A stretch of DNA of 64,000 bases from Escherichia coli (lineage in GTDB: Bacteria; Pseudomonadota; Gammaproteobacteria; Enterobacterales; Enterobacteriaceae). The stretch is taken from assembly GCF_030013205.1 (NCBI RefSeq), contig NZ_CP122648.1; one strand, given 5' to 3'. Both the position numbers and the translations under genes were made by a program. Positions within the stretch are counted from its first letter, which is position 1, and each line of letters starts with the position of its first letter. Shown piece after piece: positions 24,795 through 59,703 of the stretch. The notes beneath the pieces are model-generated. The model saw only the letters and a program-made list of their open reading frames with translations, had not been told where the DNA came from and did no database searches.

Positions 24795-24801
24795 ATAACC
24801 T

Positions 24802-31817: not shown

Positions 31818-31845
31818 TTGTGCAAATTTGTGCACTTTTGTGCAG
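31818..31845. promoter_or_regulatory. Three direct TTGTGCA repeats with 10-bp phasing (operator-like)
   Basis: TTGTGCAAATTTGTGCACTTTTGTGCAG; a fourth TTGTGCAC at 31746-31753. Confidence 0.45.
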
Positions 31846-32059: not shown

Positions 32060-32383
32060 AAAATCCGGTAGGGGGTGCGGAAACGGGTTACAAAGGTTAC
32101 ACCCCCCTAAAACACACTATAATCATATGATTTTAAAACATATTTCTTGTAACCTTTTTGAGGTTACAGAAGGTTACACGAGGTTACAGCTCTCAAAAAC
32201 AGATTAATTATCAATTAATTATAAATTTAACCTGTAACCAACAGTAACCACTACATAAAGGTTACATGTAACCCTGTTGTAACCCGTTTGTAACCTTTTA
32301 AATTTATTATAATATATTGATATATAATACGTTTTTCTGTTTGTAACCTTTGTAACCCGTTTCCGCACCCCCCCCCGGATTTT
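32060..32383. repeat. Block of about 14 GGTTACA/TGTAACC repeats flanked by near-perfect inverted repeats of about 40 bp (candidate attP-like or origin region)
   Basis: Left arm AAAATCCGGTAGGGGGTGCGGAAACGGGTTACAAAGGTTACA (32060-32101) is the reverse complement of the right arm (about 32339-32383); AT-rich core with both-orientation GTAACC repeats. Confidence 0.6.
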
Positions 32384-32628
32384 AGCGCGACCCTTTAAAA
32401 TGTTAATTAAACTCACTAACTCTGTATCACTCTCATTAACTCTCTATGATTGAAATGTATCTCACTGCTGTTTAACTCTTTCTGATAATCAAGAAAGGAG
32501 AGCAAAAAACTGATGGCGCTACCGCTGCAATATGGCCACCATCGCATTGCTGTTACCGTTGGCTTTGGCCAACAAAAAAGGCCAGTGGAAAACTGACCTC
32601 TTTTGCTGTGAATGTAGTGTTCTGCGGG

Positions 32629-33630
32629 TTACTCTACTGGCTCTTTTTGTTCAGTGAATGCCATGTTAGCTATCGGGTTAAACCTCATGGCATCCGCCAG
32701 ATAGTCGGGGGAAAAATGCGCATAAGTCATCGTTTGCTGGATAGTCGCATGTCCAAGAATCCGTTGTAATGTAACGATATTCCCACCGTTAATCATAAAG
32801 TGTGTGGCAAATGTATGACGCATGACATGCGTAGCCTGCCCCTTCGGTAAATCCGGCTTCACCTCCTGAAGGATCTCCCGGAACTTCAGATAATCAACCT
32901 GATACAACAACCCCGTCCGGCGGGTCTTAATCAGCGGCACGACCGAATCAGCCACAGGAACCGAACGGGATTTTCCGTTTTTGGTGTTAAAGAACGTCAC
33001 CCGGTTGCCAATGATGTGCTCTCCACGTAGTTCCGATGCTTCACTCCATCGGGCACCAGTAGAAAGACACAGAATGGCAACACGACGCGCATCACCCTCC
33101 AGTCGCTCAAGAAGCCGCTCAATCTCATCATCAGAAAGAAAGGCCATCTCTGTATTCTGAATTTTTAGCTTGCGTATACCGCGTACAGGGTTCGGGTTGT
33201 GAAAGACCTCAGCTTCAATCAGCACCGTGAACATGGTAGACAGAACGCACAAGTCACGATTAATGCTGGATGGCATTAAGCCGGCCTGTAATTTCTCTGA
33301 CCGATACTCAAGCATAAATTTTTGCGTCATCTGGCTGGCACGCGGATCTCCCATTTCACGAATCACTTTCTCCATCCGGATCCTGTAGGTATCACCGTAA
33401 GCCTGGTTACGGCCATCAAGCATCCACCATATATCAAGCAGCTCTGATAATCTCCGTCGATCAGCAGGTTTAGCCAGCCATGGGTTGTTATGGAAATTCT
33501 GTAAAATATGTTCTTTGAAGGCCTCCGCACTCCCTTTCCTGACAAAAATTTTACGTATCCGTTTGCCGTACGCCCCTTGGGGCCTGATATCGAGCAGCCA
33601 TCGCCCATCATCCATCTTTCTGATCGACAT
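32629..33630 (-). CDS. P2-type tyrosine integrase
   Basis: 333-aa ORF MSIRKMDDGRWLLDIRPQGAYGKRIRKIF...LSELLDIWW...INRDLCVLSTMFTVLIEAE...ILCLSTGARWSEA...GQATHVMRHTFATHFMINGGNIVTLQRILGHATIQQTMTYAHF matches P2 Int in length and motifs. Confidence 0.8.
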   Translation of the reverse strand: MSIRKMDDGRWLLDIRPQGAYGKRIRKIFVRKGSAEAFKEHILQNFHNNPWLAKPADRRRLSELLDIWWMLDGRNQAYGDTYRIRMEKVIREMGDPRASQMTQKFMLEYRSEKLQAGLMPSSINRDLCVLSTMFTVLIEAEVFHNPNPVRGIRKLKIQNTEMAFLSDDEIERLLERLEGDARRVAILCLSTGARWSEASELRGEHIIGNRVTFFNTKNGKSRSVPVADSVVPLIKTRRTGLLYQVDYLKFREILQEVKPDLPKGQATHVMRHTFATHFMINGGNIVTLQRILGHATIQQTMTYAHFSPDYLADAMRFNPIANMAFTEQKEPVE

Positions 33631-33632
33631 AC

Positions 33633-36302
33633 TTAAGCCCCCTCCTTGTTACTAAATATCCAGCATTTCAATACCTCCTTCTCTCTGGCCTCGGCTATTC
33701 CCCTCCCGGCGTTCGCCTGTCTGGATACCTCGCTACGGACGGGCTTGTATCCAATCAGCGATCGAGAACGGCCAGCCTTGAGAAGCTTTATCATTTCGGG
33801 ATTGGTTTGGGTCTTCACGTGGTGAACGGCGGCAACCTGCTCAAGTTGCGGGATACTGACGGCAAACTCATTCTGCCGTCCCTTGCCAAAATGATTTACG
33901 CCGTATGCTGTGATGCCGTCCAGATAGTCGAACGCCTCCCAGAACGCCATCACTTCCGGCAAGTCATCCATTACCGCTTTAGCCTGCTCCTCTGCCATTC
34001 GCTCCAGTTCCAGACATGTGGCATCAAGCCATTCATCCGGGATATCAATAACGCATTTCAGCGCCCTGACCAGTGCAATTAGTTGCGCGTGATTTTTGGC
34101 AATACGCTGATGGCGAATATTCTCGCAACCGTAAAGGCGGGTTGTTTCAGAATCCGAGAGTGCCATAAACAGATCCATAATCGCCCGCTCCTGGCTTACT
34201 GCCCGATGGATAAAACCTGATACCTGCTCAACGGGGTAAAGCTCCAGCCGTTTTGCTGCCAGTCGGCTATCTGGTGAGTGGCGTTTTTTATCGGTGTATA
34301 TACGTACCAGACGCTCGATAATTGCCGATGAGGCGTTTACCGTGGCATTCTGCGCAATCACGACAGCCCCTTTAAAAACGGGGTCATATGTGGCGTTATC
34401 ATTAGTTTTAACACCACGTACCCCAATACCACCGCCGTTATAGAGGCTTTTCAGGTTATCAAAGTCAAACGCACCTCTTTTTTGCGCATTGTCCCCCCGG
34501 TCTGCTTCAATCAGAACAACAGGTAATCCGGCGACCTGTCCAAAAGTTCGCTTCCAGCCTGATTCCGATCCTTTGGTTGGATCAACACCTTCATAGTTGT
34601 CACGGCCACACAAACGCCAACAAAAATCAATCAGCGTTGTTTTACCCGTTCCAGGCTCTCCGGTAATCTCAAGAAAAGGGTAAGACGTGTTTTTCTGCCT
34701 GATTTGTTCGCTGAACAACGAACCCAGCCAGAAGGCCAGGGTAATAATTCCCTTTTCACCAAAAGCCAGCCAGAGATCTTCCACCCAGGATATTGTGAAT
34801 TTATCCGGTTTTTTATAGTTAATCTGCAATATTGGTTTTTTATTCAATGGTTTTGCGTTTATGCCATCAATTTCAAAATAATCCTCTTCATTGATTTCGT
34901 AGGTTTTACCATTACAAACCGCGACATCATTAAACAGCCACGCGCCAATCTCTTTGTTGTATCCGATAAAATCCTGACCGATAACATTTTTTATTGCGGG
35001 AAGGTCATTTTTTATTAATGCATCAAGGTGCGCAGTCGTTCCGGTATAAATACCGCCTTTTGCCACATGCAACAGGCGTTTTTTAAATTCAGATGCGGAT
35101 GTTAATTGTCCTGATGTAAAGGTGTTTTTCACCGTCGCACCATCCGGGAACGTAACACGGAAGTAATACCATGCTTCATCCGTGTCATTGTTTCGAATGT
35201 AATAAAGCGGCGCCGGGTTACAGTTTGCGATTTCTTTTACAGCGCCGGATTCCTTAAGTGCAATTTTGCGCGCTTCATCTTCGTCAACATTTCGCTCATT
35301 TATGACGCGTTCAACAGCCTTCATATGGCGCTCAATATCCAGTTTGAACCAGAAAACACGGTTATCAAAAGTAAAATGAAATTCCTTTCGCTCACGAAAG
35401 GAAAACATTATCAGCGCCTTATCTCTCGGAGATTTTGCCAGCAATAAATCACCGTAATAACGGTATCTTTTCACATCATGGCCACGCAGCTTTCCGGCGA
35501 TGTGTAAATCATTCCAGTCGCGTTTATTGCTGTTTTTTCCTGGTAACGCCGCTGCCGTTCTCCAGCCGTCTTCGGCGCTGCGTTCTGCATGTTTTTTCGC
35601 ATAACGCTCACCCGCACGCCCGTTATCCAGCGCCCACACGATAACCGGACGGGGATTATCCCCGCACAGCTTCGCCAGCTCTTCCAGCGCCTTATCAGGG
35701 TAGTTTACGGCAGACATGACAGAAACGGCCGCAATGCCATTCTGGTTAAGGCTGATGGCATCAAAGATACCCTCACAAATCCAGATTTCTTTGGCCTTGC
35801 TTAAATCATCTCCCGGATAAGCCCACCACAACCCCTTGTAGCTGCCGGAAAAATTCGCCTTGCGCGCGAAGCGTTCCGGTCGGTCTATGATGCGCTCCCA
35901 CCACACGCCGTCAGCCAGTGTAAAACGCACAGTAGCGGCCTGTTCGCCGCTTTCCTTGTCCTGGTATCGCTCCTGAGTAAATGCTCCCTTCAGTGGCTCC
36001 ACAGCAATATTGCGTGCTTCCAGAAGATAAGCTGTCGCCGCTGCGTATGGATTGTCTTTCGTGCTGATATAGCGATCTGACCATGATGAAAACACATCCG
36101 GGTAAAGTTCTTTGGTCAACAGGTCTGTACCGCATTTATTTTCGCGCCCACAGTGCACGATGTACGGCCTTTCAAGGCTGGTAAAGAGCTCCTTCTTTCC
36201 ACATTGCGGACAAACACCATACCGGAGGTAGTTATTTTCTTCTTTGAAGTTGTAATCACGGATAAGACGGTTAATAATCTCTTTTCTGGTGTTATGTTTC
36301 AT
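33633..36302 (-). CDS. Primase-helicase replication protein (Cys4 zinc finger + TOPRIM primase + P4/D5-type NTPase)
   Basis: 889-aa ORF with CPQCGKK...HCGRENKCG, TOPRIM-like WICEGIFDAISL and ALDNGRAGERYA, Walker A GEPGTGKT and Walker B VVLIEAD. Confidence 0.75.
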   Translation of the reverse strand: MKHNTRKEIINRLIRDYNFKEENNYLRYGVCPQCGKKELFTSLERPYIVHCGRENKCGTDLLTKELYPDVFSSWSDRYISTKDNPYAAATAYLLEARNIAVEPLKGAFTQERYQDKESGEQAATVRFTLADGVWWERIIDRPERFARKANFSGSYKGLWWAYPGDDLSKAKEIWICEGIFDAISLNQNGIAAVSVMSAVNYPDKALEELAKLCGDNPRPVIVWALDNGRAGERYAKKHAERSAEDGWRTAAALPGKNSNKRDWNDLHIAGKLRGHDVKRYRYYGDLLLAKSPRDKALIMFSFRERKEFHFTFDNRVFWFKLDIERHMKAVERVINERNVDEDEARKIALKESGAVKEIANCNPAPLYYIRNNDTDEAWYYFRVTFPDGATVKNTFTSGQLTSASEFKKRLLHVAKGGIYTGTTAHLDALIKNDLPAIKNVIGQDFIGYNKEIGAWLFNDVAVCNGKTYEINEEDYFEIDGINAKPLNKKPILQINYKKPDKFTISWVEDLWLAFGEKGIITLAFWLGSLFSEQIRQKNTSYPFLEITGEPGTGKTTLIDFCWRLCGRDNYEGVDPTKGSESGWKRTFGQVAGLPVVLIEADRGDNAQKRGAFDFDNLKSLYNGGGIGVRGVKTNDNATYDPVFKGAVVIAQNATVNASSAIIERLVRIYTDKKRHSPDSRLAAKRLELYPVEQVSGFIHRAVSQERAIMDLFMALSDSETTRLYGCENIRHQRIAKNHAQLIALVRALKCVIDIPDEWLDATCLELERMAEEQAKAVMDDLPEVMAFWEAFDYLDGITAYGVNHFGKGRQNEFAVSIPQLEQVAAVHHVKTQTNPEMIKLLKAGRSRSLIGYKPVRSEVSRQANAGRGIAEAREKEVLKCWIFSNKEGA

Positions 36303-36314
36303 ATATAAATCCCC

Positions 36315-36344
36315 CCCACTGCACCTTTTGCAGTGGGTTTTTTA
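36315..36344. terminator. Hairpin plus T-run between the primase gene start and the upstream small ORF
   Basis: CCCACTGCA-CCTTTT-TGCAGTGGG followed by TTTTTTA; reads as a canonical terminator on the + strand. Confidence 0.4.
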
Positions 36345-36348
36345 TTAA

Positions 36349-36648
36349 TTACTCGTTGCTTATTGCTTTGGCAATCCCGGCGGTTTCGGCGCTATGCCAT
36401 GAAAAAATTCCGCCGGATGAATGCATACCAGATTTTATTGATTGTAATTCCCTATAAATAATGTTAGACAGAGATGCAATTTCTTCATTTATAATTTCTG
36501 CTGATGCTCCGCCATTTTTATCGTCAAAAACCACAGATATTAAACTGACGAGATTAATCACATCTGTGAGATCTTCCTTTGCACTTTCTGTAAAAAAGCC
36601 AACATATTCTCTATCTAAAAAATTTTCGCTATTCTGACGTTTAGACAT
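36349..36648 (-). CDS. Hypothetical protein (AT-rich, island-specific)
   Basis: 99-aa ORF, first of a run of small co-oriented genes upstream of the primase gene; no family recognised. Confidence 0.4.
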   Translation of the reverse strand: MSKRQNSENFLDREYVGFFTESAKEDLTDVINLVSLISVVFDDKNGGASAEIINEEIASLSNIIYRELQSIKSGMHSSGGIFSWHSAETAGIAKAISNE

Positions 36649-36715
36649 AAAAACTCCCCGACCCGTTAAGGCCGAAATATAAATTTAATTCAGTTATCAG
36701 TTGGTAATTCGGGAA

Positions 36716-36934
36716 TCAGGCGGAAAGCTGCGTCACCTTCAACGCCCTGAAATGTGTCATTCCCAGCTCTTCCAGCCCTTCGGCTGCGCGGCGTATGGCT
36801 TCGCCCGGTCCCGTTCCGTATACCGTTGCATGTGCATGTTTGGTTAACCCACGTTTATTAACGGCATAACCCAACACAAAGAAACGTTTTTCACCACTGC
36901 CATTATTTTTACGGGATGTTGAACGGGTTTTCAT
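36716..36934 (-). CDS. Hypothetical small protein
   Basis: 72-aa ORF; start overlaps the stop of the upstream gene (4-nt overlap). Confidence 0.35.
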   Translation of the reverse strand: MKTRSTSRKNNGSGEKRFFVLGYAVNKRGLTKHAHATVYGTGPGEAIRRAAEGLEELGMTHFRALKVTQLSA

Positions 36935-37119
36935 TTCTTCACCTTTACCACTGATGCTGTGAGTTCTTCTTCTGGCAACTGATATTTCGGCGCAATTTCT
37001 TCCGTATACCTGATAGCGTCCCTTGCCGCTTTTCCTTTTGATTTATATTTATATGTGGTCCGGTAGTTTTCTTCCTCTCCTGTTACCACATTACGCAATT
37101 TAATATGAATCTCGTACAT
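36931..37119 (-). CDS. Hypothetical small protein
   Basis: Start taken at MYEIHIKLRNVVTGEEENYRTTYKYKSKGKAARDAIRYTEE...; the track ORF extends 10 codons further upstream. Confidence 0.35.
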   Translation of the reverse strand: MYEIHIKLRNVVTGEEENYRTTYKYKSKGKAARDAIRYTEEIAPKYQLPEEELTASVVKVKK

Positions 37120-37121
37120 CG

Positions 37122-37304
37122 TTACCCCTCCATGATTTTTACTGCGCATTTGTGGGTTAATCGCCCCTGTTCATTCGTGCGGCTGTACTCCATGCGGCTG
37201 GCAGCACGCAGGGCATCATCACAGGTCTGATATTCCCTGACATGAAAAAACTGACGAACGTCGCCGCTCTGGCAGTTAATCAGGGTGATAAGGAGCTTAA
37301 ACAT
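37122..37304 (-). CDS. Hypothetical small protein
   Basis: Start taken at MFKLLITLINCQSGDVRQFFHVREYQTCDDALRAASRMEY...; the longer track ORF overlaps the upstream gene. Confidence 0.3.
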   Translation of the reverse strand: MFKLLITLINCQSGDVRQFFHVREYQTCDDALRAASRMEYSRTNEQGRLTHKCAVKIMEG

Positions 37305-37824
37305 TGCACGCCTCCCGGATACGAATACGGGCAACAGAGACCAGACGGGATGCCGGAAGCAGGGCGCGCGCTTCGCGCTCACTGGCGGCGGTAACGGTAT
37401 GAAGGCGGATATTTTTACCGTGGCACTGCATAAAGCGCCAGATAAAATCAGGGCGTGTTGATATAGCCATTTTGGCGGCTCCTTTGTCTAATTTACGGAG
37501 TCTCGCCAGCACGCTGCTAAACATGGTGGCGGGACGTAACAGGGTTAGCAGACTGGTGACAAAGAAACCAGCAGGCCTTACGGCCTCCCCATTACGCCCC
37601 GCCATAATACGGGAAAGGGTGGTATTACGGGCACAAAAAAACCGCATTACGGAAATATAGCGGCTACCCGCTTTGTCAATCAGGCTGCTAAACCCGGCAC
37701 CCGCTTTATGAGGTGCGGGCAAACGATACGCCATGACAAAAAAGCGAGTCAAGCAATATTGCAAATTATTTTTGCGTGATTGCGCTGAGTAATTGATTTT
37801 TAAGAGTAAAAAAGCCATAATCAT
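37297..37824 (-). CDS. Hypothetical protein (basic, Arg/Ala-rich)
   Basis: 175-aa ORF, first gene downstream of alpA; true start may be the internal MAYRLPAPHKAG... Confidence 0.35.
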   Translation of the reverse strand: MIMAFLLLKINYSAQSRKNNLQYCLTRFFVMAYRLPAPHKAGAGFSSLIDKAGSRYISVMRFFCARNTTLSRIMAGRNGEAVRPAGFFVTSLLTLLRPATMFSSVLARLRKLDKGAAKMAISTRPDFIWRFMQCHGKNIRLHTVTAASEREARALLPASRLVSVARIRIREACNV

Positions 37825-37885
37825 TTCTGCCTATTATTTCTTATTGTTGGTTTCAGGTGCACTAAATGCACATCCTTGACTGGTT

Positions 37886-37917
37886 GGCTCGCTAGCTTTA
37901 GCGAGCTTCTTTTTTGC
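37886..37917 (+). terminator. Plus-strand intrinsic terminator-like hairpin with no annotated plus-strand gene upstream
   Basis: GCTCGCTA-GCTT-TAGCGAGC followed by TTCTTTTTTG; a second hairpin GGTGCACTAAATGCACATCC lies about 20 nt upstream. Confidence 0.4.
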
Positions 37918-38377
37918 TCTGCAGCCAGTACCCGGCCTCCTTCCCTCACATGTAGTCATGTGCTCATTCCAGTCAGGTGGATAATGCTGTATTACCGGAC
38001 ATCCGGTTATGATGTTTAAAGCGTTTGTTTGTTTATGCCACGTGGAGAATATACCCACGCCGCCATTACTTGTATTTATCATAACAGTTCATCCAATTCG
38101 GTTAATGTAACCGGAATAACTCAATTTCATACACTGTAAATAAATGCTGATTTTAAACTTAGCTCCTTGGAATATATTTCTTACGTGTGACGTACAGGTG
38201 AAAATATCCCTCTGATAGTCCATTTTCTTTTATTGGGTCACATCTTTTTACTCCGGTTCCCTTAACAAGGGTAGAGCATCTTTTAAACCATGAATGCATC
38301 TTTGGTTAAGTGATGTTTCTTATTGAATGAAATGTTTAGGCGCATATCGCGCCATGCTGACTATAAAGTGAAAATAA

Positions 38378-50392: not shown

Positions 50393-50878
50393 ATGCAAGT
50401 TTTTATCATGCGTCACGGCGACGCAGCCCTCGATGCCGCCAGTGATTCGGTTCGTCCTCTGACCACTAACGGTTGTGACGAATCTCGCCTGATGGCGAAC
50501 TGGCTGAAAGGTCAAAAAGTGGAAATCGAACGCGTTCTGGTGAGCCCGTTCCTGCGAGCCGAGCAAACACTGGAAGAAGTAGGGGATTGTCTGAACCTGC
50601 CTTCCAGTGCAGAAGTTCTGCCGGAGTTAACGCCCTGCGGCGATGTTGGTCTGGTCAGTGCCTATTTGCAGGCGTTGACCAATGAAGGTGTTGCTTCGGT
50701 ACTGGTGATCTCCCACTTACCCTTAGTCGGGTATCTGGTTGCCGAGTTATGTCCGGGCGAAACGCCGCCTATGTTTACCACCTCGGCCATTGCCAGCGTA
50801 ACGCTTGATGAAAGCGGAAACGGCACATTCAATTGGCAGATGAGCCCATGTAATCTGAAGATGGCAAAGGCGATTTAA
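50393..50878 (+). CDS. sixA: Phosphohistidine phosphatase SixA
   Basis: 161-aa ORF MQVFIMRHGDA... with the RHG motif. Confidence 0.9.
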   Translation: MQVFIMRHGDAALDAASDSVRPLTTNGCDESRLMANWLKGQKVEIERVLVSPFLRAEQTLEEVGDCLNLPSSAEVLPELTPCGDVGLVSAYLQALTNEGVASVLVISHLPLVGYLVAELCPGETPPMFTTSAIASVTLDESGNGTFNWQMSPCNLKMAKAI

Positions 50879-51536
50879 TACGCATGCACAAGGCCCGCTG
50901 GTGTAAGCTATCGGGCCTTTATTTTCTGGCAATGTTGAATTTTTTTAATCTTATTGTACTAACAATGATCCGCTTGTGATCGAATAGTCATAATTTTATA
51001 CGGTATGACGCTTTTATTTGTGGAAATTTACATATTGAAAGAAAATTTACTTTTATTCATAAATTATTTTTCTGGAAGCATTTTTAGGTAAATAATGACT
51101 AAAGTGAAAAATATTATTGGGTCTTGATTTTATATTAATTATAGTGTTTTAATATTATATCGTTGCGAAATTAATATCACAAGATAGTCATTGCCATGTG
51201 ATTGTTTTTGACTTTGATTTATTCACTGAATTTTTGCATTTGCTGTTTTTTTGAACTCATTCTTCATAACTGAGATGAAAAATTTCAGTAATTATTATCC
51301 CCGTCCATTAATTAAGTATTTCTAACTTTTAATGTTAGAAAATTTAAATTGCATCAGTCATATTAAAATATCAACATGTTCGGCACGCCAAAGAATATTA
51401 TATCAAGGAACCTGTTTTTTCAGGAGCTGAAAATCTGTTCATTGGCTGCTTAAAAGTCGCTGTAAAAATTGAAGAAGCTCTGCGTCAATATTTCAGTTGG
51501 CTTATATTATAATTATTTATGATTTAAGGACAAATA

Positions 51537-52103
51537 ATGAGTAAGTTTGTAAAAGCAGCAGTTGCCACGGCAATGCTCATGGGGGCGCTGACTTCAGCAT
51601 CAGTCGTTGCCGCAGGGAATAACGGTACAGTGAGATTTTACGGCACAATTGAAGACTCCCCGTGCTCAATTGTTCCTGACGATCATAAACTGGAAGTGGA
51701 TATGGGCAGCATCGGTACGGGTTCTTTAACCGGCGGCAAAACAACCACACCAAAAGATTTCCAGATTCGTTTACAGGACTGTAATTTCAATACTGAAACG
51801 ACAATGTCTACCACATTCACCGGTAATCCATACTCCACTAACGCAGATAACTATTCTCTGTCTAACATGGATAATGGAACTGAAATTCCAAACGTTAGCC
51901 TGGTTATCGGTGACCAGCACGGTACAGGTTATGCTCTGGGAGCAGAGATTAAGCAACCTATCGTGAGGGACAGTTCAACGGGAAAAGGCAAACCTAAACA
52001 AACTCTGAACTTTAAAGCATGGTTAGTGGGTGAAACGGCTGCTGTAACACCAACACCGGCACCGTTTGAAACGCTGACGACGTTCCAGATCACGTATCTC
52101 TAA
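51537..52103 (+). CDS. yfcV: Fimbrial major subunit (chaperone-usher pilin)
   Basis: 188-aa ORF with signal peptide and C-terminal pilin beta-strand (...TFQITYL). Confidence 0.85.
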   Translation: MSKFVKAAVATAMLMGALTSASVVAAGNNGTVRFYGTIEDSPCSIVPDDHKLEVDMGSIGTGSLTGGKTTTPKDFQIRLQDCNFNTETTMSTTFTGNPYSTNADNYSLSNMDNGTEIPNVSLVIGDQHGTGYALGAEIKQPIVRDSSTGKGKPKQTLNFKAWLVGETAAVTPTPAPFETLTTFQITYL

Positions 52104-52173
52104 TGTATTTCCCCCATAGCTGCAAAGTTATGGGGTTATAACTACCAAATAACTAAATTATAAAAAATCATGG

Positions 52174-54825
52174 ATGGATACGCCGATGCCAGAACATTCT
52201 TTTCTCCGTTTACGGGGGCTTTCGTGGTGGATTGCTCTGGCAATTTCTGGAAGTCCATTTAATGCCCTGGCTGACGATACCATTCAGTTTGATGGCCGAT
52301 TTCTTGATTTAAAAGGCAATACCAAAATTGATTTGGGCCGTTTTTCGCAAAAAGGCTATGTAGAACCGGGAAAATATAACTTACGCGTTCATGTAAATAA
52401 TCAGCCGTTACCTGACGAATACGATATCTACTGGTACGCAACTGAAAACGATCCGAATAAATCATATGCCTGCTTATCGCCAGAGCTGGTTGCCCAGTTT
52501 GGTCTGAAGGAAGATATTGCGAAAAATGTGCAATGGATCCGCGATGGTCAGTGTCTGAATACGGCACTTTTAGCAGGTACAGAAATTAGCGGCGATTTAG
52601 GCCAGTCTGCACTCCTTGTTTCTGTACCGCAGGCTTATCTGGAATATACCGACAGCGAGTGGGACCCGCCTTCGCGCTGGGATGACGGTATCCCTGGGCT
52701 TATTGCCGATTACAGTATCAACGCGCAAACCCGACATGAAAATGGGGGTGATGACACTAACGACATCAGCGGTAATGGTACGGTCGGCGTTAACGTGGGG
52801 CCGTGGCGCTTACGAGCTGACTGGCAGAGCGATTATCAGCATACGCGCAGTAACGATGACGGCGACACCGACGATAGCGGTACGCAAAAAAACTGGGAGT
52901 GGAGCCGTTACTACGCCTGGCGCGCCTTGCCGTCATTAAAAGCCAAACTTTCGCTGGGCGAAGATTACCTCAACTCCGATATTTTTGATGGTTTCAGTTA
53001 CATTGGCGGCAGCATCAGTACCGATGATCAAATGTTACCGCCAAACCTGCGCGGCTACGCCCCCGATATTTCAGGTGTTGCACACACTACCGCTAAAGTG
53101 ACTGTAACCCAAATGGGCCGTGTCATTTACGAAACCCAGGTGCCCGCAGGGCCATTCCGCATTCAGGATATTGGCGATTCCGTCTCTGGCACGCTGCATG
53201 TCCGCATTGAAGAACAAAACGGCCAGGTACAAGAATACGACGTCAGCACGGCGTCCATGCCATTCCTGACTCGCCCCGGCCAGGTGCGTTATAAAGTGAC
53301 AATGGGGCGTCCACAAAACTGGGACCATCAGGTTGCAGGTAGCTTCTTCTCGGGCGGCGAGGCATCGTGGGGGATTGCCAATGGCTGGTCGCTCTACGGC
53401 GGTGCGTTAGCCGATGAAAACTACCAGTCGGCGGCGCTGTGCCTCGGTCGTGACCTGGCGCTGTTAGGCGCGTTAGCGTTTGATGTCACTCACTCTCGTG
53501 TTCAACTCGACGATAACAGCGTGTATGGCAACAAAACGCTGGACGGCAACTCTTATCGCGTCAGCTATGCCAAAGATTTTGATGAACTCAACAGTCGGGT
53601 GACGTTTGCTGGATACCGCTTCTCTGAAAAAAACTACATGACCATGAGCGAGTATCTGGATGCGAACGACGACGACCGGGCGCGCACCGGTAACGACAAA
53701 GAGATGTATACGGTCACCTATAACCAGAACTTCACGGATGCGCGCGTTTCGGTCTATCTCAACTATTCCCACCATACCTACTGGGATCGCCAGGATCAGA
53801 CCAACTACAACATGATGCTTTCTCATTATTTCAATTTAGGAAACCTTCGTAACTTGAGCGTTTCTCTGACTGGTTATCGCTACGAATACGATAAAAGTGC
53901 CGACAAGGGTGTTTATCTGTCCTTAAGTTTGCCGTGGGGCGACAACAGCACCATCAGTTACAACGGCAACTATGGCAGCGGTGCCGACAGCAATCAGGTG
54001 AGCCTGTACCACCGCATTGATGACGCCAGCCACTACACGTTAAGCGCCGGAACCAGCGAAAACCACAGCAGCGTGGATGGCTACTACAGCCACGATGGTA
54101 CTCTGGCAAAAGTTGATCTCAGTGCCAACTACCATGAAGGGCAATACACCTCAGCAGGGATCTCTTTACAGGGCGGGGCAACGTTGACCGCTCACGGCGG
54201 GGCGCTGCATCGTACACAAAACATGGGCGGTACACGTCTGTTAATCGACGCTGATGGCGTTGCTAATGTGCCGGTTGAAGGTAATGGTTCCGCCGTTTAT
54301 ACCAACATGTTCGGCAAAGCGGTGGTGGCAGATGTTAATGATTACTACCGCAACCAGGCTTATATCGATTTGACCAAACTGCCGGAAAACGCCGAAGCCA
54401 CGAAATCAGTGGTTCAGGCAACGCTGACGGAAGGCGCTATTGGCTACCGTAAATTTGCGGTGATCAGCGGTGAGAAGGCGATGGCAGTGCTGCGCTTGCA
54501 GGATGGCAGCCATCCGCCATTTGGGGCGGAAGTGAAAAACGATAATCAACAACAAGTTGGATTGGTTGATGACGAAGGTAATGTTTATCTGGCAGGCGTT
54601 AAACCGGGTGAACATATGACCGTTTCTTGGGAGGGTGAATCTCACTGCGATATCAGCCTGCCAGACCCGTTACCGAATGACCTGTTCAATGGCTTGTTGT
54701 TGCCATGCCAGCAAAAGGGGGGAAGTTCTCCCGTCATACCGCATGATATTCAACCTGTCATTCAGGAGCAGACACAACAGGTGGCACCAATGGAACCGCC
54801 GATGTCTGTTTCATCGAACCAATAA
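52174..54825 (+). CDS. yfcU: Fimbrial outer membrane usher, full length
   Basis: 883-aa continuous ORF with usher-family features throughout. Confidence 0.85.
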   Translation: MDTPMPEHSFLRLRGLSWWIALAISGSPFNALADDTIQFDGRFLDLKGNTKIDLGRFSQKGYVEPGKYNLRVHVNNQPLPDEYDIYWYATENDPNKSYACLSPELVAQFGLKEDIAKNVQWIRDGQCLNTALLAGTEISGDLGQSALLVSVPQAYLEYTDSEWDPPSRWDDGIPGLIADYSINAQTRHENGGDDTNDISGNGTVGVNVGPWRLRADWQSDYQHTRSNDDGDTDDSGTQKNWEWSRYYAWRALPSLKAKLSLGEDYLNSDIFDGFSYIGGSISTDDQMLPPNLRGYAPDISGVAHTTAKVTVTQMGRVIYETQVPAGPFRIQDIGDSVSGTLHVRIEEQNGQVQEYDVSTASMPFLTRPGQVRYKVTMGRPQNWDHQVAGSFFSGGEASWGIANGWSLYGGALADENYQSAALCLGRDLALLGALAFDVTHSRVQLDDNSVYGNKTLDGNSYRVSYAKDFDELNSRVTFAGYRFSEKNYMTMSEYLDANDDDRARTGNDKEMYTVTYNQNFTDARVSVYLNYSHHTYWDRQDQTNYNMMLSHYFNLGNLRNLSVSLTGYRYEYDKSADKGVYLSLSLPWGDNSTISYNGNYGSGADSNQVSLYHRIDDASHYTLSAGTSENHSSVDGYYSHDGTLAKVDLSANYHEGQYTSAGISLQGGATLTAHGGALHRTQNMGGTRLLIDADGVANVPVEGNGSAVYTNMFGKAVVADVNDYYRNQAYIDLTKLPENAEATKSVVQATLTEGAIGYRKFAVISGEKAMAVLRLQDGSHPPFGAEVKNDNQQQVGLVDDEGNVYLAGVKPGEHMTVSWEGESHCDISLPDPLPNDLFNGLLLPCQQKGGSSPVIPHDIQPVIQEQTQQVAPMEPPMSVSSNQ

Positions 54826-54844
54826 CGTGATTAAGGAATGATCC

Positions 54845-55594
54845 ATGATTAAACATCTCTCTGCCAAAACATTGACAACGGTACTGTCGTTGCTGGCAGC
54901 AACGGTAAGTTTTTCTGCCCAGGCGTCAGTAACGCCCGATCGTACCCGGCTGATTTTCAATGAAAGCGATAAATCTATCAGCGTGACGCTGCGTAATAAC
55001 GACCCCAAACTGCCTTATCTGGCGCAAAGCTGGATTGAAGATGAAAAGGGCGTCAAGATCAGCTCGCCGCTGGCGGTATTGCCGCCCGTACAGCGCATTG
55101 ATGCAATGATGAATGGTCAGGTTAAAATTCAGGGCCTGCCGGATATTCATAAATTACCTGCCGATCGGGAATCGATGTTCTATTTCAACGTGCGCGAAAT
55201 TCCGCCGAAATCGAACAAATCCAACACGCTGCAAATCGCCCTCCAGACGCGTATCAAACTTTTCTGGCGACCGAAAGCCCTGGAAAAAACCACTACGCAA
55301 AACCCGTGGCAGCATAAAGTGACCTTAACCCGCAACGGTCAGGAATTTACCGTTAATAACCCGACGCCGTATTACGTCATTTTCAGTAATGCCAGCGCAC
55401 AGAAAAATGGCAATCCGGCAGCCGGTTTCTCGCCAATAGTGATGTCGCCGAAAACCTCTGCACCGCTGAATGTGAAGATGGGTAGCGTGCCGGTACTGAC
55501 CTATGTCAACGACTATGGCGCTCGGATGCCGCTCTTTTTCACCTGCAACGGTAACAGTTGCCAGGTTGATGAAGAGCAGAGCCGCAAAGGCTGA
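54845..55594 (+). CDS. yfcS: Fimbrial periplasmic chaperone (PapD-like)
   Basis: 249-aa ORF with signal peptide and PapD-fold motifs. Confidence 0.85.
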   Translation: MIKHLSAKTLTTVLSLLAATVSFSAQASVTPDRTRLIFNESDKSISVTLRNNDPKLPYLAQSWIEDEKGVKISSPLAVLPPVQRIDAMMNGQVKIQGLPDIHKLPADRESMFYFNVREIPPKSNKSNTLQIALQTRIKLFWRPKALEKTTTQNPWQHKVTLTRNGQEFTVNNPTPYYVIFSNASAQKNGNPAAGFSPIVMSPKTSAPLNVKMGSVPVLTYVNDYGARMPLFFTCNGNSCQVDEEQSRKG

Positions 55595-55609
55595 GGCCGG
55601 GAGTGTGAG

Positions 55610-56101
55610 ATGAAACGACTACTTTTGGCCGGGTTGGGAGGAGTGCTGCTTACGGGCAGTGCTCTTGCCGGTGAAACGAAAAGTGTGCCATTAACATTGC
55701 ACGTGCTGGTAGATCCACCACCTCCATGTACCGTAAAAGGCAGTAACGTCGATTTTGGTGATGTGATCATCAAAAAAATCAATGGTACTGAATATCGCAA
55801 AGATGCAGGTTATACCCTGAACTGTGCCAATAGCCTGAGCGATGACCTTCAGATGCAGTTTAAGGGCACAACCACCACGATCAATGGCGAAACGGTGTTA
55901 AGCACGGGAATTACCGGGTTTGGCATTCGTATTGAAAATGCAGCAGATAACTCTCTGTTTGCGATTGGCGACAATACCTGGACTCCATTTAGTGTCAGTA
56001 GCCAGCCACAACTCAAAGCAGTGCCAGTCAAACAGAATGGCGTGACGCTGACAGGCGCACAGTTTAACGCCAGCATGACAATGGTGGTGGATTACCAATG
56101 A
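55610..56101 (+). CDS. yfcR: Fimbrial minor subunit
   Basis: 163-aa pilin-like ORF with signal peptide and conserved Cys pair. Confidence 0.8.
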   Translation: MKRLLLAGLGGVLLTGSALAGETKSVPLTLHVLVDPPPPCTVKGSNVDFGDVIIKKINGTEYRKDAGYTLNCANSLSDDLQMQFKGTTTTINGETVLSTGITGFGIRIENAADNSLFAIGDNTWTPFSVSSQPQLKAVPVKQNGVTLTGAQFNASMTMVVDYQ

Positions 56102-56577
56102 AACGACTCTCGTTAATTTTATTATCCGCTTTTTGCACCATAACGCATGCCGCACCGGAAGATATCACCTTCACGGGTACGCTGATCGAACCTCCGGTCT
56201 GCACCGTCAGCAATGGTGATGATATTGAGATCCAGTTTATCGACGTCATTATCGACAATATTGACGGGGTTAATTACCGCAAAGATGTTCCGTACCAGAT
56301 AACGTGTGACCCTGATATTACCGATGACGCCTGGGTAATGACGCTAACCTGGACCGGTACACAGACCAGCTATAACGATGCGGCGATTCAGACGGATGTG
56401 ACGGGTTTAGGGATTGAACTCCAGCAAAACGGTCAGCCCTTTAAGCTGAATACCCCGCTTAACGTGACACCCGCCAACCTGCCGAAGTTGAAGGCCGCAC
56501 CTGTAAAAGCTTCCGATGCCACGCTGACTGACGGTAACTTTTCCGCTTACGCCACATTGCAGGTGGATTATCAATGA
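56098..56577 (+). CDS. yfcQ: Fimbrial minor subunit
   Basis: 159-aa pilin-like ORF ending ...TLQVDYQ. Confidence 0.8.
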   Translation: MKRLSLILLSAFCTITHAAPEDITFTGTLIEPPVCTVSNGDDIEIQFIDVIIDNIDGVNYRKDVPYQITCDPDITDDAWVMTLTWTGTQTSYNDAAIQTDVTGLGIELQQNGQPFKLNTPLNVTPANLPKLKAAPVKASDATLTDGNFSAYATLQVDYQ

Positions 56578-57119
56578 ACAAACTGAAGAAATATCAATGT
56601 ATCAGGGTGCAAACCCTTCTGTTGGGCGGTGTGCTGGTGCTGGTGAGTCATTCAGCACTGGCAGCTAATAATTTGCATTTTTACGGCAACCTGATGAGCA
56701 AAACCTGTACTCCGGTGGAACAGGCTGGAACGTTGGCAGAGGTACAGTTTGCTGATATCAGCTACAAAGATTTGATGGTGCGCGGTCAGTCCGATCGTGT
56801 ACCGGTGGTTTTTCGCCTGAAAGATTGCCATGGGCCAGCGCAGTACAGCGTAAAAGTTACTCTGACCGGAACAGAAGACAGTGGGCAACCGGGATTTCTG
56901 GCTCTGGATGATACCTCCGGTGCACAGGGCGTAGGCATTGGTATGGAAACTACTGACGGTACTGCGGTTGCTATTAATAACACGACGGGGGTGACCTTTG
57001 TGCTGAATGATGGCAATAACAGTCTTAATTTCAGGGCCTGGTTACAGGCGAAAGAAGGGCGTGCAGTAACGCCCGGTAATTTTACTGCCCAGTTAACCGC
57101 CACGTTTGAGTACATTTAA
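56574..57119 (+). CDS. yfcP: Fimbrial minor subunit
   Basis: 181-aa pilin-like ORF ending ...TATFEYI. Confidence 0.8.
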   Translation: MNKLKKYQCIRVQTLLLGGVLVLVSHSALAANNLHFYGNLMSKTCTPVEQAGTLAEVQFADISYKDLMVRGQSDRVPVVFRLKDCHGPAQYSVKVTLTGTEDSGQPGFLALDDTSGAQGVGIGMETTDGTAVAINNTTGVTFVLNDGNNSLNFRAWLQAKEGRAVTPGNFTAQLTATFEYI

Positions 57120-57984
57120 GATGAAAAAAATACGCTGGATTTTTGGCCTGATAATGTTGTTTTTTTTCAGTACAGCAGTACAGGCGAATACCATTGTTGC
57201 CACATTGTATACTCCCGTTGGATATTCAACGCATACTACAAAGATTGTTTATTATCTCGATGTTCTCACTCCCGAGTCCGTCAACCACGGTAGCTATAAA
57301 CCACCAGATGGTTATGGGGTGATCACGGGATGGATGGATAAAATCAGTTGGACAGGATCGGGGACTGCACCATCATTAAAAATTATATCTTTGACCAAGA
57401 TCGGTAAATCATCATGCCCCGGGCTTGACGAGTTTGATAGTCGTTCTGGTTATAGTGACTGGACTTGTTATGAAGCGCGAATTGAAGTCTGGAAGGAAGA
57501 CTCCAGCGTCCATGGTTGCCCGTGGCTGGTTTCGACACATGCTGATAGCCGTCTACCTTTAGACCCTGGTCCAGGAACCTATTCCGGACCTACAGTCAGT
57601 AACTCTTCTTGTCCACCTATACCGTTAGGGCCTTATGATGTGTCCTGGAATGAAAGTCGGGTTGTGCGTGATAAGACGTTAACTCTCCAGTCTACCGGCG
57701 GGATAATTGAAAAAACGCTCTCCACCTACCTGATGAAAGACGGCAAACTGTGTGATGGCAGCAAATTTGGCGATACTGACGATCGTGGTGCTTATTGTCG
57801 TTGGGTGTCGCAAATGCTCACCTTCACCTCATCGGGCTGTGACAATGCCAAAGTGACGGTAACACCAAATCGTCACCCCGTTACCGACAAAGAGCTTCAC
57901 GATATGGTGCTTCGCGTGGATACCACCTCGCGGCAACCTATTGATTCTACCTGTCGATTCCAGTACGTGCTGAATATGCTGTAG
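57106..57984 (+). CDS. yfcO: Fimbrial operon terminal protein (putative tip adhesin)
   Basis: 292-aa secreted Cys-containing ORF at the operon end; start may be 57121 (MKKIRW...). Confidence 0.7.
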   Translation: MSTFKMKKIRWIFGLIMLFFFSTAVQANTIVATLYTPVGYSTHTTKIVYYLDVLTPESVNHGSYKPPDGYGVITGWMDKISWTGSGTAPSLKIISLTKIGKSSCPGLDEFDSRSGYSDWTCYEARIEVWKEDSSVHGCPWLVSTHADSRLPLDPGPGTYSGPTVSNSSCPPIPLGPYDVSWNESRVVRDKTLTLQSTGGIIEKTLSTYLMKDGKLCDGSKFGDTDDRGAYCRWVSQMLTFTSSGCDNAKVTVTPNRHPVTDKELHDMVLRVDTTSRQPIDSTCRFQYVLNML

Positions 57985-58005
57985 TAGTTCGTCGTTGTGC
58001 ACTGA

Positions 58006-58040
58006 TGCCTGATGCGACGCTGAAGCGTCTTATCAGGCAT
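58006..58040. repeat. REP (repetitive extragenic palindromic) element
   Basis: ATGCCTGATGCGACGCTGAAGCGTCTTATCAGGCAT, a typical enterobacterial REP palindrome between convergent genes. Confidence 0.8.
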
Positions 58041-58053
58041 TCGATGCCAGCAT

Positions 58054-58605
58054 TCACGGTAATTCCGGCGGCAACCACTCATCCACTTCAATCAACACCA
58101 GCAATGCCGCATCACCACCGTACTCTTTTGGTGCCTGGTGAAATGCCATGACATGTGGATGCTGCGCCAGCCACAGCGGCGTTTGCTGCTTCAAAATATG
58201 CTTCCCATGACCATGCATCACGCAGGCACAAAACACATGTTCGCGGCGGCAGGCAGCAATCAATGCGCCTAATTCCTGCTTGGCTTGCAGCTGCGTCAAA
58301 CCGTGCAAATCCAAAAACAGCTCCGGTGAATAATCGCCACGGCGTAACTTCTTCGCCTCAAAATGGCTTACATCCGGGCGAACATATTTCACCGGACCTT
58401 CGGTATTCAATAACGGCTGAAACTCATCGGAAAAATAATGGCTGGCATCGGCCTGCTCCTGAATCAACCGCTTCACCGGCACTTCGCTGATTTTTTTACG
58501 CTGCGGTCGGTGGACAATCGTGTCCTGCTTAATCTTGCGAGTCCCCGCCATCAACTGGCGAAACAGAGCCTGGTCCTCCTCGCTAAGTGTTGTTTTCTTT
58601 TTCAT
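58054..58605 (-). CDS. smrB: Smr-domain ribosome rescue endonuclease SmrB
   Basis: 183-aa ORF with C-terminal Smr domain (...[23 protein letters not shown]...VMHGHGK...). Confidence 0.9.
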
Positions 58606-58770
58606 TTATCTGTCTCTATTTCTAATTTTCCTACAGTTTACCCGACTCGTAGCACAATCGATCGTTTTAAACGTATTTTTCCTCACTCACCGCGCGTGAA
58701 TGCTGATTTATCGTCATCTTCATGGCAAACTAGCCGCCGAAATTATTGCGATCATGCCCTGGAGGAATAC

Positions 58771-59703
58771 GTGGATAAAATTTTCGTTGATGAAGCAGTA
58801 AATGAGCTGCAAACCATTCAGGACATGTTGCGCTGGTCGGTGAGCCGCTTCAGCGCGGCGAATATCTGGTACGGCCACGGCACTGACAACCCGTGGGATG
58901 AAGCCGTGCAACTGGTGTTGCCTTCGCTCTACCTGCCGCTGGATATCCCGGAAGATATGCGCACCGCGCGTCTGACCTCCAGCGAAAAACACCGTATTGT
59001 TGAGCGCGTGATTCGCCGCGTCAACGAGCGCATTCCGGTGGCCTACCTGACCAACAAAGCCTGGTTCTGCGGTCATGAATTTTACGTCGATGAACGTGTG
59101 CTGGTGCCGCGCTCGCCGATTGGTGAACTGATTAACAATAAATTTGCCGGACTCATCAGCAAGCAACCGCAGCACATTCTGGATATGTGCACCGGAAGCG
59201 GCTGCATTGCAATTGCCTGTGCTTATGCCTTCCCGGAAGCGGAAGTCGACGCGGTAGATATCTCTCCCGACGCGCTGGCGGTGGCTGAACAGAACATCGA
59301 AGAACACGGTCTGATCCACAACGTCATCCCAATTCGCTCCGATCTGTTCCGTGATTTGCCGAAAGTACAGTACGACCTGATCGTCACTAACCCGCCGTAC
59401 GTCGATGCGGAAGATATGTCCGACCTGCCAAATGAATACCGCCACGAGCCGGAACTGGGCCTGGCATCTGGCACCGACGGCCTGAAACTGACGCGTCGCA
59501 TTCTCGGTAACGCGGCAGATTACCTCGCTGATGATGGCGTGCTGATTTGTGAAGTGGGCAACAGCATGGTACATCTTATGGAACAATATCCGGATGTTCC
59601 GTTCACCTGGCTGGAGTTTGATAACGGCGGCGATGGTGTGTTTATGCTCACCAAAGAGCAACTGCTGGCGGCCCGTGAACATTTCGCGATTTATAAAGAT
59701 TAA
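58771..59703 (+). CDS. prmB: Ribosomal protein L3 glutamine N5-methyltransferase PrmB
   Basis: GTG start giving 310 aa; methyltransferase motifs [13 protein letters not shown] and NPPY; the long ORF in the track is an upstream extension. Confidence 0.9.

Follow-up and report, generated by a model that had tools for sequence, protein, structure and literature searches.

The stretch of Escherichia coli DNA analysed here (64 kb, the window) carries a fimbrial operon between sixA and smrB, which raises the question of whether this is the K-12 yfc operon distinguished by an unbroken usher, as an earlier note on the DNA had taken it to be, or an allele of a different class. The operon spans positions 51537-57984 on the plus strand and consists of seven uninterrupted open reading frames, each with a strong Pfam match, in agreement with the claim of the note that all seven genes are intact. 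They encode a major pilin, a PapC-like usher, a PapD-like chaperone, three minor pilins and a protein of the YfcO/StfH family (DUF2544). This position between sixA and smrB is that of yfc, with the same neighbours at the K-12 locus, and the RefSeq annotation of a 100% identical locus concurs with the operon reading, the names yfcU, yfcV and yfcO not being used there for the window allele. The operon is a known kind of system, among the E. coli fimbriae already catalogued, and its genes and neighbours are arranged as follows.

50393-50878: sixA, left neighbour of the operon
51537-52103, plus strand: yfcV-type major pilin, 188 aa, with signal peptide (Pfam Fimbrial, 1e-17)
52186-54825, plus strand: PapC-like outer-membrane usher, 879 aa (Pfam PapC_N, Usher at 3.8e-187, and PapC_C)
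54845-55594, plus strand: PapD-like periplasmic chaperone, 249 aa (Pfam PapD_N and PapD_C)
55610-56101, plus strand: minor pilin at the yfcR position, 163 aa (Pfam Fimbrial, 3.7e-16)
56098-56577, plus strand: minor pilin at the yfcQ position, 159 aa (Pfam Fimbrial, 2.7e-14)
56574-57119, plus strand: minor pilin at the yfcP position, 181 aa (Pfam Fimbrial, 2.9e-20)
57121-57984, plus strand: YfcO/StfH-family putative tip adhesin, 287 aa (Pfam DUF2544, 4.4e-73)
58054-58605, minus strand: smrB (yfcN), right neighbour of the operon, convergent with yfcO

The usher, the chaperone, the pilins and the gene order all place the system among the classical chaperone-usher fimbriae of the pi (Pap-like) clade. 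The usher aligns with PapC in one piece over residues 34-842 and scores 740 bits against PapC, compared to 269 bits against FimD. It also passes the cutoff of NCBIfam PRK15284, the StfC-type usher subfamily (1785 bits, cutoff 972), and the K-12-type YfcU cluster is among its nearest usher clusters, at 80% (grouping by identity and PRK15284 score). Together with the sixA-smrB position, this grouping with YfcU bears out the identification of the operon as yfc, a type that Wurpel et al. 2013 delimit by locus and usher phylogeny. The chaperone scores 208 bits against PapD and keeps the motifs DRTR (Arg8) and IKLFWRP (Lys112), in addition to the C-terminal CxxxxC pair of cysteines. As read from the translations, the four Fimbrial-domain proteins have signal peptides and C-termini with a penultimate tyrosine (TYL, DYQ, DYQ and EYI). 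The major pilin, whose gene has the Shine-Dalgarno sequence AAGGA at 51526-51530, is 65% identical to K-12 YfcV, and the minor pilins at the yfcR, yfcQ and yfcP positions are 60%, 60% and 63% identical to their respective K-12 counterparts; their top NCBIfam models are StfA, StfE, StfF and StfG, respectively, each under its cutoff. No PapH-like terminator subunit was evident in the operon. The gene order, running from the major pilin through usher, chaperone and minor subunits to the adhesin, is that of the pi class, and yfc is listed as pi-type in the literature (PMC3032704).

The longest open reading frame of the usher gene starts at 52174 and gives the 883 residues reported in the earlier note, but the RefSeq entry and the K-12 homologue begin four codons later, at 52186, so that the usher is indeed uninterrupted while its annotated length is 879 residues. 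An E. coli protein cluster (879 aa, 1,723 members) matches it at 99% identity from end to end. Because of this match and the contiguous PapC alignment, a missed frameshift in the usher is ruled out. The disruption that the note gives for K-12 was found as described: yfcU (b4661) is annotated as a pseudogene, with a single in-frame TAG at codon 579 by alignment, opposite which the window has TAT (Tyr) at 53914-53916. An intact usher, however, is the common state and not a peculiarity of this strain. At most 363 of 5,426 complete E. coli genomes contain the K-12 71-mer that spans the TAG, a close relative reads TAC at this codon, and yfc was the sole core fimbrial cluster intact in all genomes examined, according to Wurpel et al. 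2013. The assumed K-12 defect is itself uncertain, because K-12 yfc is called “functional but cryptic” and is credited with raising adherence to bladder cells, as papers citing Korea et al. 2010 relate.

Comparison with K-12 revealed that the operon belongs to a strongly divergent allele class, and the assumption that it is of the K-12 type had to be abandoned. Its proteins are 50-84% identical to those of K-12 (79.6% for the usher against YfcU), compared to 100% for the flanking SixA and 99.5% for SmrB, and the upstream region shares only ~40-60% nucleotide identity. Against K-12, dS ranges over 1.0-1.7 or has reached saturation, with dN/dS values of 0.07-0.18 where computable; such low ratios despite (near-)saturated dS indicate that the operon genes are under purifying selection and are not decaying. 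A K-12 allele with a repaired stop codon is ruled out, since the divergence spans the whole cassette. The following features mark the edges of the cassette and a junction within it.

50890-50926, plus strand: sixA intrinsic terminator, a GC stem followed by a T-run (sequence reading and fold)
55592-55610, plus strand: module junction, at which the 5' and 3' modules reassort between strains
58007-58038, either strand: REP-like palindrome between the convergent yfcO and smrB (folds of -33.6 kcal/mol on the plus and -28.7 kcal/mol on the minus strand, z about -4)
58054-58500, minus strand: right edge of the divergent cassette in the 3' part of smrB, where divergence decays gradually

The left edge is sharp, identity to K-12 falling from 98-100% to ~40% right past the sixA terminator. 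On the right, nucleotide identity across 58000-58500 climbs from 58% through 88-94% to 100%, and smrB has a dS of 0.47 vs 0.08 for sixA. The palindrome, which we take to be a REP element from its sequence and the REP consensus, is probably a two-way transcript end.

The alleles at this locus are mosaics of two modules, a 5' module of regulatory region, pilin, usher and chaperone, and a 3' module of the three minor pilins and the adhesin. Protein identity matrices of 10 strains showed that the two reassort independently. In the strain “capsule mutant 18b”, the sequence equals that of the window until the last chaperone codons and is unrelated from the stop codon on; the five alleles aligned do not differ over the final ~30 nt of the chaperone gene. 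Of the 5,426 genomes, 5,385 have a yfcV-like gene, 555 the window-type pilin (at least 95% nucleotide identity), and only 240 the window-type 3' module. High nucleotide diversity and trees incongruent with MLST have been reported for the yfc genes (PMC4850163).

For the last gene, ATG 57121 (287 aa) is a more likely start than TTG 57106 (292 aa). The earlier note was right to count its product as a seventh intact gene, but its label “terminal protein” is misleading, for the family is that of the NCBI StfH/YfcO fimbrial adhesins, and the RefSeq product name reads “StfH/YfcO family fimbrial adhesin”. The protein is 50% identical to K-12 YfcO. A hypervariable block at 57128-57575 covers the signal peptide and the N-terminal domain; in alignments with the nearest sister allele, identity is 60-70% over the N-terminal ~150 aa and 97-100% over the C-terminal half. 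A sister allele in strain 98224 is 82% identical. The N-terminal half is a further variable cassette, exchanged or diversified separately. An AlphaFold model (pLDDT 81) has its β-strands clustered into an N-terminal and a C-terminal half, and matched only generic Ig-like folds in the PDB; no solved structure matching YfcO by sequence was found. YfcO homologues form 175 distinct clusters at 90% identity, of which the named ones are nearly all from Escherichia. The window adhesin allele (at least 99% nucleotide identity) occurs in 17 of the 5,426 complete E. coli genomes, and all 17 come from Sus scrofa (pig, wild boar). These isolates are probably one lineage, and the association with pigs is most simply explained by clonal descent.

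The upstream region is as AT-rich as had been claimed, at a length close to the ~650 bp given before, and contains the following features together with a stem-loop behind the first gene.

50879-51536, plus strand: AT-rich intergenic/regulatory region, 658 bp (26.8% GC over 50926-51536)
51117-51145, plus strand: candidate sigma-70 promoter (-35 TTGGGT at 51117-51122, 17-nt spacer, -10 TATAGT at 51140-51145)
52112-52135, plus strand: 10-bp stem-loop directly 3' of the pilin stop codon (RNA fold -18.8 kcal/mol, z = -1.85)

GC content reaches its minimum for the 64 kb here, at 23% over 300 bp, and A/T tracts of at least five bases number ten against 2.9 expected. In a 10-allele alignment, the candidate promoter coincides in position with the K-12 yfcV promoter TTGAAA-17-TATAGT; its -10 hexamer is kept and its -35 (TTGGGT) is weak. 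If used, it would leave a 5' leader of ~390 nt. A generic scan for sigma-70 promoters and terminators over 50700-58700 gave counts no higher than shuffled controls. Genomic SELEX on the K-12 sixA-yfcV spacer detected H-NS binding and a constitutive sigma-70 promoter (PMC3946193), and cryptic E. coli chaperone-usher fimbriae are reported to be repressed by H-NS (PMC3559732). As the upstream regions are so dissimilar, these K-12 data carry over by analogy alone. H-NS silencing of the window allele is plausible. The spacer has two matches to the high-affinity H-NS motif, each with two mismatches, and the enrichment is uninformative. No Rfam family reached its gathering threshold in the spacer. 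Its inverted repeats are weak (71-78% complementary), with no strong ones; this, and the lack of a recombinase gene at the locus, speaks against an invertible promoter of the fim type. A Dam/Lrp switch of the Pap type was rejected as well: no papI/papB-like reading frame lies between sixA and the pilin gene, and the only GATC sites of the spacer, at 50967 and 50978, are 11 bp apart, not ~100 bp. The stem-loop behind the pilin gene, after which no clear T-run was seen, may set the ratio of pilin to usher, either by attenuation or by stabilising the mRNA.

Taking the locus as a whole, we consider it highly probable that it is an intact Pap-like (pi-class) yfc operon in a strongly divergent allele, assembled like P pili and evolving by cassette exchange. 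By analogy with P pili, a single transcript would run from the AT-rich upstream region, which H-NS probably silences in laboratory culture. All seven products carry signal peptides and would be exported; the PapD-like chaperone would then cap every subunit by donor-strand complementation, and the PapC-like usher would be expected to admit the YfcO adhesin, followed by the three minor pilins as tip or adaptor and by many major pilin copies that form the shaft. The locus itself would evolve by recombination of the 5' and 3' modules where the chaperone gene has its conserved end, with the N-terminal domain of the adhesin varying independently. A bolder extension, in which sixA-smrB is a site of cassette exchange that swaps tip modules and heads, and the window head is a form that binds a receptor of the pig gut and aids colonisation, seems quite improbable to us. 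The exchange junctions proposed in it are conserved, one being the final ~30 nt of the chaperone gene and the other the REP/smrB end, and its pig-gut part concerns strains of edema disease and post-weaning diarrhoea.

The operon could instead be a cryptic relic, intact by chance, unexpressed and heading for decay as in K-12. Such fimbriae have been described as cryptic in laboratory culture (PMC3559732), and K-12 and some other strains have the locus damaged by a nonsense mutation, an IS insertion, a truncation or a frameshift. Decay nevertheless accords poorly with seven of seven intact genes in the window, with the low dN/dS between allele classes at (near-)saturated synonymous sites, with a yfcV-like gene in nearly all genomes, and with the conserved functional motifs of chaperone and usher; elsewhere in E. 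coli, moreover, yfcV transcripts respond to regulators or depend on the strain group (PMC5956150, PMC6033998). We regard this account as very unlikely. It is a separate matter whether the divergent allele is an old polymorphism maintained within E. coli or was recently acquired by horizontal transfer from a different Escherichia species or genus. The sharp left breakpoint would suit an import, as would the usher of a cryptic-clade Escherichia sp. at 92% identity and the fact that usher identity between E. coli classes (76-80%) is like that to the ushers of E. albertii and E. fergusonii (78-81%). We nevertheless find it doubtful, because a near-identical copy is absent from the sequenced non-coli species (best usher 92%, adhesin 55-57%), the GC3 of the operon (0.43-0.58) lies mostly within or just under that of the flanking core genes (0.56-0.63), and ~10% of complete E. 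coli genomes carry the allele class, which has by now reassorted with other modules. The divergence also tapers into smrB and prmB, which fits an old linked polymorphism.

As for YfcO, it might not be a receptor-binding adhesin: its N-terminal variability could reflect escape from antibodies or from phages that use the fimbrial tip, or the protein could have some other structural role. It matches no pilin or lectin domain and only the generic Ig-like folds, and the pattern of variability by itself cannot tell receptor switching from immune or phage escape. The NCBI family, however, is named a fimbrial adhesin, and the position as last gene and the bipartite layout, in which the conserved C-terminal half would be the part that docks on the next subunit, match adhesins of the FimH and PapG type. 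In addition, mutation of yfcO weakened adherence and colonisation in avian pathogenic E. coli (Li et al. 2016, as cited in PMC8069529). A non-adhesive YfcO is thus unlikely, and a putative tip adhesin remains the preferred reading within the account of an intact, divergent Pap-like operon.

Seen in this way, the intact usher carries little weight against K-12, since yfc is as a rule intact and is catalogued as a core-associated fimbria of E. coli. The main point of interest is a strongly divergent mosaic allele with an adhesin head variant confined to pig and wild-boar strains. K-12 is therefore a poor reference for the yfc locus: presence or absence of yfcV, yfcR, yfcQ, yfcP and yfcO as scored by PCR or BLAST mostly reflects allele class rather than gene content, and data on regulation or receptors from K-12 or UPEC are not transferable to the window allele. 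Should a porcine receptor for the pig-restricted head be found, the head would become a candidate for a vaccine antigen or a colonisation factor in edema-disease and ETEC lineages.

Among the known systems, K-12 Yfc (yfcV-yfcU-yfcS-yfcR-yfcQ-yfcP-yfcO, b2339-b2332) shares the locus, the seven-gene order and the protein families with the window, but has a spacer of 680 bp rather than 658 bp and the TAG in its usher, which is intact in the window. The cluster ECs3222-ECs3216 of O157:H7 and E. coli W, which goes by the name eso/epo and is regarded as a pi-type fimbria of its own at sixA-yfcN (PMC3032704), and the allele type of B2/UPEC strains, the source of the “yfcV” virulence marker, both have the locus and architecture found here. 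Compared to these two, the window represents a third class of 5' module, with a pilin 66% identical to that of O157 and 71% to that of B2 and an usher 80% and 76% identical, respectively. Its 3' module is likewise distinct, the adhesin being 43-48% identical to the O157/W and B2/UPEC adhesins.

Salmonella enterica Stf (stfACDEFGH), whose genes lie at a different chromosomal locus, has the same gene order, and StfA, the StfC-type usher and StfD-StfG are the top models for six of the seven window proteins. Yet the scores fall short of the Stf equivalog cutoffs (bits/cutoff: StfA 137/267, StfD 342/447, StfE 153/264, StfF 168/253 and StfG 150/253), and the Salmonella ushers are ~55-62% identical to the window usher. 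By the NCBIfam cutoff standard, the window proteins are related to Stf but not Stf orthologues.

Finally, P pili (Pap) share with the window homologous PapC and PapD proteins with their functional residues kept, and the layout of a major pilin first, several minor tip pilins and an adhesin last. They differ in having papI/papB, the Pap-type GATC pair and a PapH gene, of which no counterparts are evident in the operon, and in their adhesin, which is PapG in P pili and a DUF2544 protein in the window. Whereas P pili are encoded on a pathogenicity island, the window operon occupies a core locus.

The operon lying between sixA and smrB (51537-57984) consists of seven uninterrupted open reading frames on the + strand, flanked by fadJ-sixA and smrB-prmB-aroC. 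All seven have a Pfam match, in agreement with the intact operon described in the earlier note, and the same locus and gene order in K-12 MG1655 bear out its identity as the yfc operon. The genes and the identity of each protein to its K-12 counterpart are as follows:

51537-52103, + strand: major pilin (Pfam Fimbrial), 65% identical
52174-54825, + strand, longest reading frame: usher (Pfam PapC_N, Usher at 3.8e-187 over the full model length, PapC_C), 80% identical
54845-55594, + strand: chaperone (Pfam PapD_N, PapD_C), 84% identical
55610-56101, + strand: first minor pilin (Pfam Fimbrial), 60% identical
56098-56577, + strand: second minor pilin (Pfam Fimbrial), 60% identical
56574-57119, + strand: third minor pilin (Pfam Fimbrial), 63% identical
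57106-57984, + strand, longest reading frame: YfcO adhesin (Pfam DUF2544, 4.4e-73), 50% identical

Signal peptides, as read from the sequence, are recognisable at the N-terminus of all seven translations. The 8.2-kb stretch is 100% identical in E. coli O139:H1 strain W13-16 (wild boar, France), whose RefSeq annotation has the same seven genes and calls the last product 'StfH/YfcO family fimbrial adhesin'. Systems of this kind are already known, and this very sequence has been deposited and annotated. RefSeq places the adhesin start at 57121 (287 aa) and the usher start at 52186 (879 aa). The latter agrees with the K-12 N-terminus. The usher is uninterrupted as previously read, but its 883 residues therefore represent the longest reading frame, the likely protein having 879.

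The usher gene of K-12, yfcU (b4661), is annotated as a pseudogene. As stated in the earlier note, it is disrupted: its translation is broken by a single in-frame stop, TAG at codon 579, where the window has TAT (53914-53916). A 71-nt K-12 probe centred on this TAG has an exact match in at most 363 of 5,426 complete E. coli genomes. A near relative, differing solely by TAC at that codon, is annotated as intact YfcU, and a pig isolate with an exact match is flagged 'internal stop'. Yfc has also been listed as a core-associated fimbria, the sole such cluster intact in all genomes examined (Wurpel et al. 2013). Given the probe count and this survey, an intact usher is the default state of the species, and its difference from K-12 no longer makes the window operon of special interest. 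Nor is the assumed K-12 defect clear-cut: at second hand, in papers citing Korea et al. 2010, K-12 yfc is called 'functional but cryptic' and is said to raise adherence to bladder cells. Disruption of the locus does occur through lesions other than the K-12 nonsense codon. In the soil strain SC434 the usher is truncated N-terminally, the pilin gene is missing and the adhesin is frameshifted (locus record 4849-9183), and several other E. coli genomes carry IS1 or IS3 insertions.

The operon diverges from K-12 between well-conserved flanks, with SixA and SmrB being 100% and 99.5% identical in protein. A 100-bp sliding comparison located a sharp left breakpoint, where identity falls from 98-100% to ~40% directly after the sixA terminator (~50890), and a gradual right edge, where it climbs from 58% to 88-94% and then 100% within 58000-58500, in the 3' part of smrB. 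The operon genes have a synonymous divergence from K-12 of 1.0-1.7 or are saturated, compared to 0.08 in sixA; the dN/dS of 0.07-0.18, where computable, indicates that the operon genes are under purifying selection. The dS values of smrB (0.47) and prmB (0.27) both exceed that of sixA, with proteins >99% identical, which suggests an old linked polymorphism on the right side; the divergent haplotype thus runs ~1.7 kb past the operon on the smrB side only (58054-59703).

Gene-by-gene comparison of ten strains revealed a mosaic of two modules. At least three classes of the 5' module (upstream region, pilin, usher and chaperone) can be told apart, namely the window, K-12/O157 and B2/UPEC types, whereas the 3' module (three minor pilins and adhesin) has at least five and reassorts independently. 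Strain 'capsule mutant 18b' shares 98-99% identity with the window in pilin, usher and chaperone, whereas its 3' module is just 46-56% identical and resembles that of strain 2e, a strain with K-12-like pilin and usher. The crossover is exact: the window matches 18b through the last chaperone codons and is unrelated from the stop codon on, the last ~30 nt of the chaperone gene being invariant in five of five aligned alleles. The window-type pilin gene occurs in 555 of the 5,426 genomes (at least 95% nucleotide identity, with the 90-95% band empty), only 240 of which combine it with the window-type 3' module; 5,385 contain a yfcV-like sequence. There are earlier hints of this modularity in the literature. 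An O157-like cluster at sixA-yfcN was handled as a different π fimbria in the E. coli W genome paper (PMC3032704), and yfc genes show high nucleotide diversity and MLST-incongruent trees, with yfcR, yfcQ, yfcP and yfcO 'not present' in some UPEC strains (Ren et al. 2016, PMC4850163). We read these absences as allele divergence, not gene loss.

Within the allele family of 240 genomes, protein identity is 97-99% for the pilin, usher, chaperone and minor pilins, compared to just 82% for YfcO. The differences are confined to one block (57128-57575) covering the signal peptide and first ~150 residues, where identity is 60-70%, against 97-100% for the C-terminal half. Across all classes, the first quarter is 20-35% and the last quarter 65-76% identical, and 40 homologues share eight invariant cysteines and an invariant CPW motif. 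A protein search yielded 175 clusters of homologues at 90% identity, nearly all named ones from Escherichia. An AlphaFold model built from the homologue alignment (mean pLDDT 81) has its β-strands grouped into N-terminal and C-terminal halves. This pattern fits, without proving, a two-domain tip adhesin like FimH or PapG, in which the receptor-binding head varies and the docking domain is conserved. The one outside study in support of an adhesin role concerns a different allele: as cited in PMC8069529, an APEC yfcO mutant showed weaker adherence and colonisation (Li et al. 2016). The exact window allele (at least 99% nucleotide identity) was found in 17 genomes, all from pig or wild boar, namely O139:H1 strains, Belgian porcine ETEC strains, K_EC180 (swine) and the Sus scrofa isolates EC556, EC571 and EC581. 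A further nine, from dogs, humans, soil and a possum, match at 95-99%, and 213, mostly human, at 80-90%. The exact match between the window and the Belgian porcine ETEC genomes extends over another 25 kb, so clonal descent is the simplest explanation of the pig restriction.

The 658-bp spacer between sixA and the pilin gene (50879-51536) is as AT-rich as had been noted, its GC content of 26.8% (minimum 23%) being the lowest in the 64-kb window; A/T tracts of at least 5 bases number ten, against 2.9 expected. It is mostly unalignable to the K-12 spacer, except for conserved islands common to all ten alleles, one of which contains the -10 hexamer TATAGT of the K-12 yfcV promoter. That promoter was identified by genomic SELEX in a study that also marks H-NS in the K-12 spacer (PMC3946193). 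Neither a Pap-like or fim-like switch nor an Rfam element was found in the spacer. The non-coding features are:

51117-51145: candidate promoter TTGGGT-17-TATAGT, homologous to the K-12 yfcV site; a prediction that would imply a ~390-nt leader
52112-52135: 10-bp stem-loop after the pilin gene (z = -1.85)
58007-58038: REP-like palindrome between the convergent yfcO and smrB (z about -4)

Elsewhere in the window, a P4-like satellite (28200-40714), which also carries an Icd-like and an ogr/Delta gene, is integrated at tRNA-Arg (40643-40714, - strand); W13-16 lacks it, so the window stems from a relative such as the Belgian porcine ETEC4079. The satellite adjoins a degraded P22/KplE1-like prophage (14300-27810) with torI and truncated terminase and tail genes; the prophage tailspike (head-binding domain) gene is interrupted by IS1 (~21750-22447). 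Their features include:

23862-26500: prophage O-antigen modification set (gtrA, DUF2142, glycosyltransferase)
26651-27808: prophage intS
28206-28798: satellite MazEF-like toxin-antitoxin pair
28842-30113: satellite P2-family major capsid gene
33633-36302: satellite toprim primase
37522-37609: satellite C4 antisense RNA (Rfam)
37635-37716: satellite isrK (Rfam)
39199-40461: satellite integrase

A sucrose utilisation (csc) cluster (8900-14270) lies beside dsdA and encodes a LacI-family regulator, CscA, a kinase and an MFS transporter; of dsdX only a truncated fragment is left. Between mlaA and fadL sits an orphan 415-aa reading frame (42950-44197, - strand), within a stretch of ~29% GC, with no Pfam or PADLOC match; compared to strain NRG 857C, where mlaA and fadL are adjacent with no intervening gene, it looks like a small insertion gained by horizontal transfer.

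Between the window-type usher and those of other E. coli allele classes, identity is 76-80%, about as low as that to the E. albertii (81%) and E. fergusonii (78%) ushers. The closest usher outside E. coli, from cryptic-clade Escherichia, is 92% identical, and those of Salmonella are 55-62% identical. Altogether, the window operon represents an uncharacterised allele class of its own, in a locus that is modular and recombines and whose adhesin head is hypervariable; K-12 and UPEC data are not simply transferable to it.

PapC matches the usher with 740 bits and FimD with 269; for the chaperone, PapD gives 208 bits and FimC about 90-96. The chaperone keeps the motifs DRTR (Arg8) and IKLFWRP (Lys112) as well as the C-terminal cysteine pair. 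Salmonella Stf proteins are the best NCBIfam models, yet all matches fall below the equivalog cutoffs; the usher passes the subfamily model PRK15284. By these scores, motifs and model matches, the system is a Pap-like (π) chaperone-usher fimbria that belongs to the Yfc/Stf group. By analogy with the well-established P pili, subunits would be exported via Sec and capped by the chaperone through donor-strand complementation, and the usher would then direct ordered donor-strand exchange, with the adhesin first, the minor pilins next and the major pilin last.
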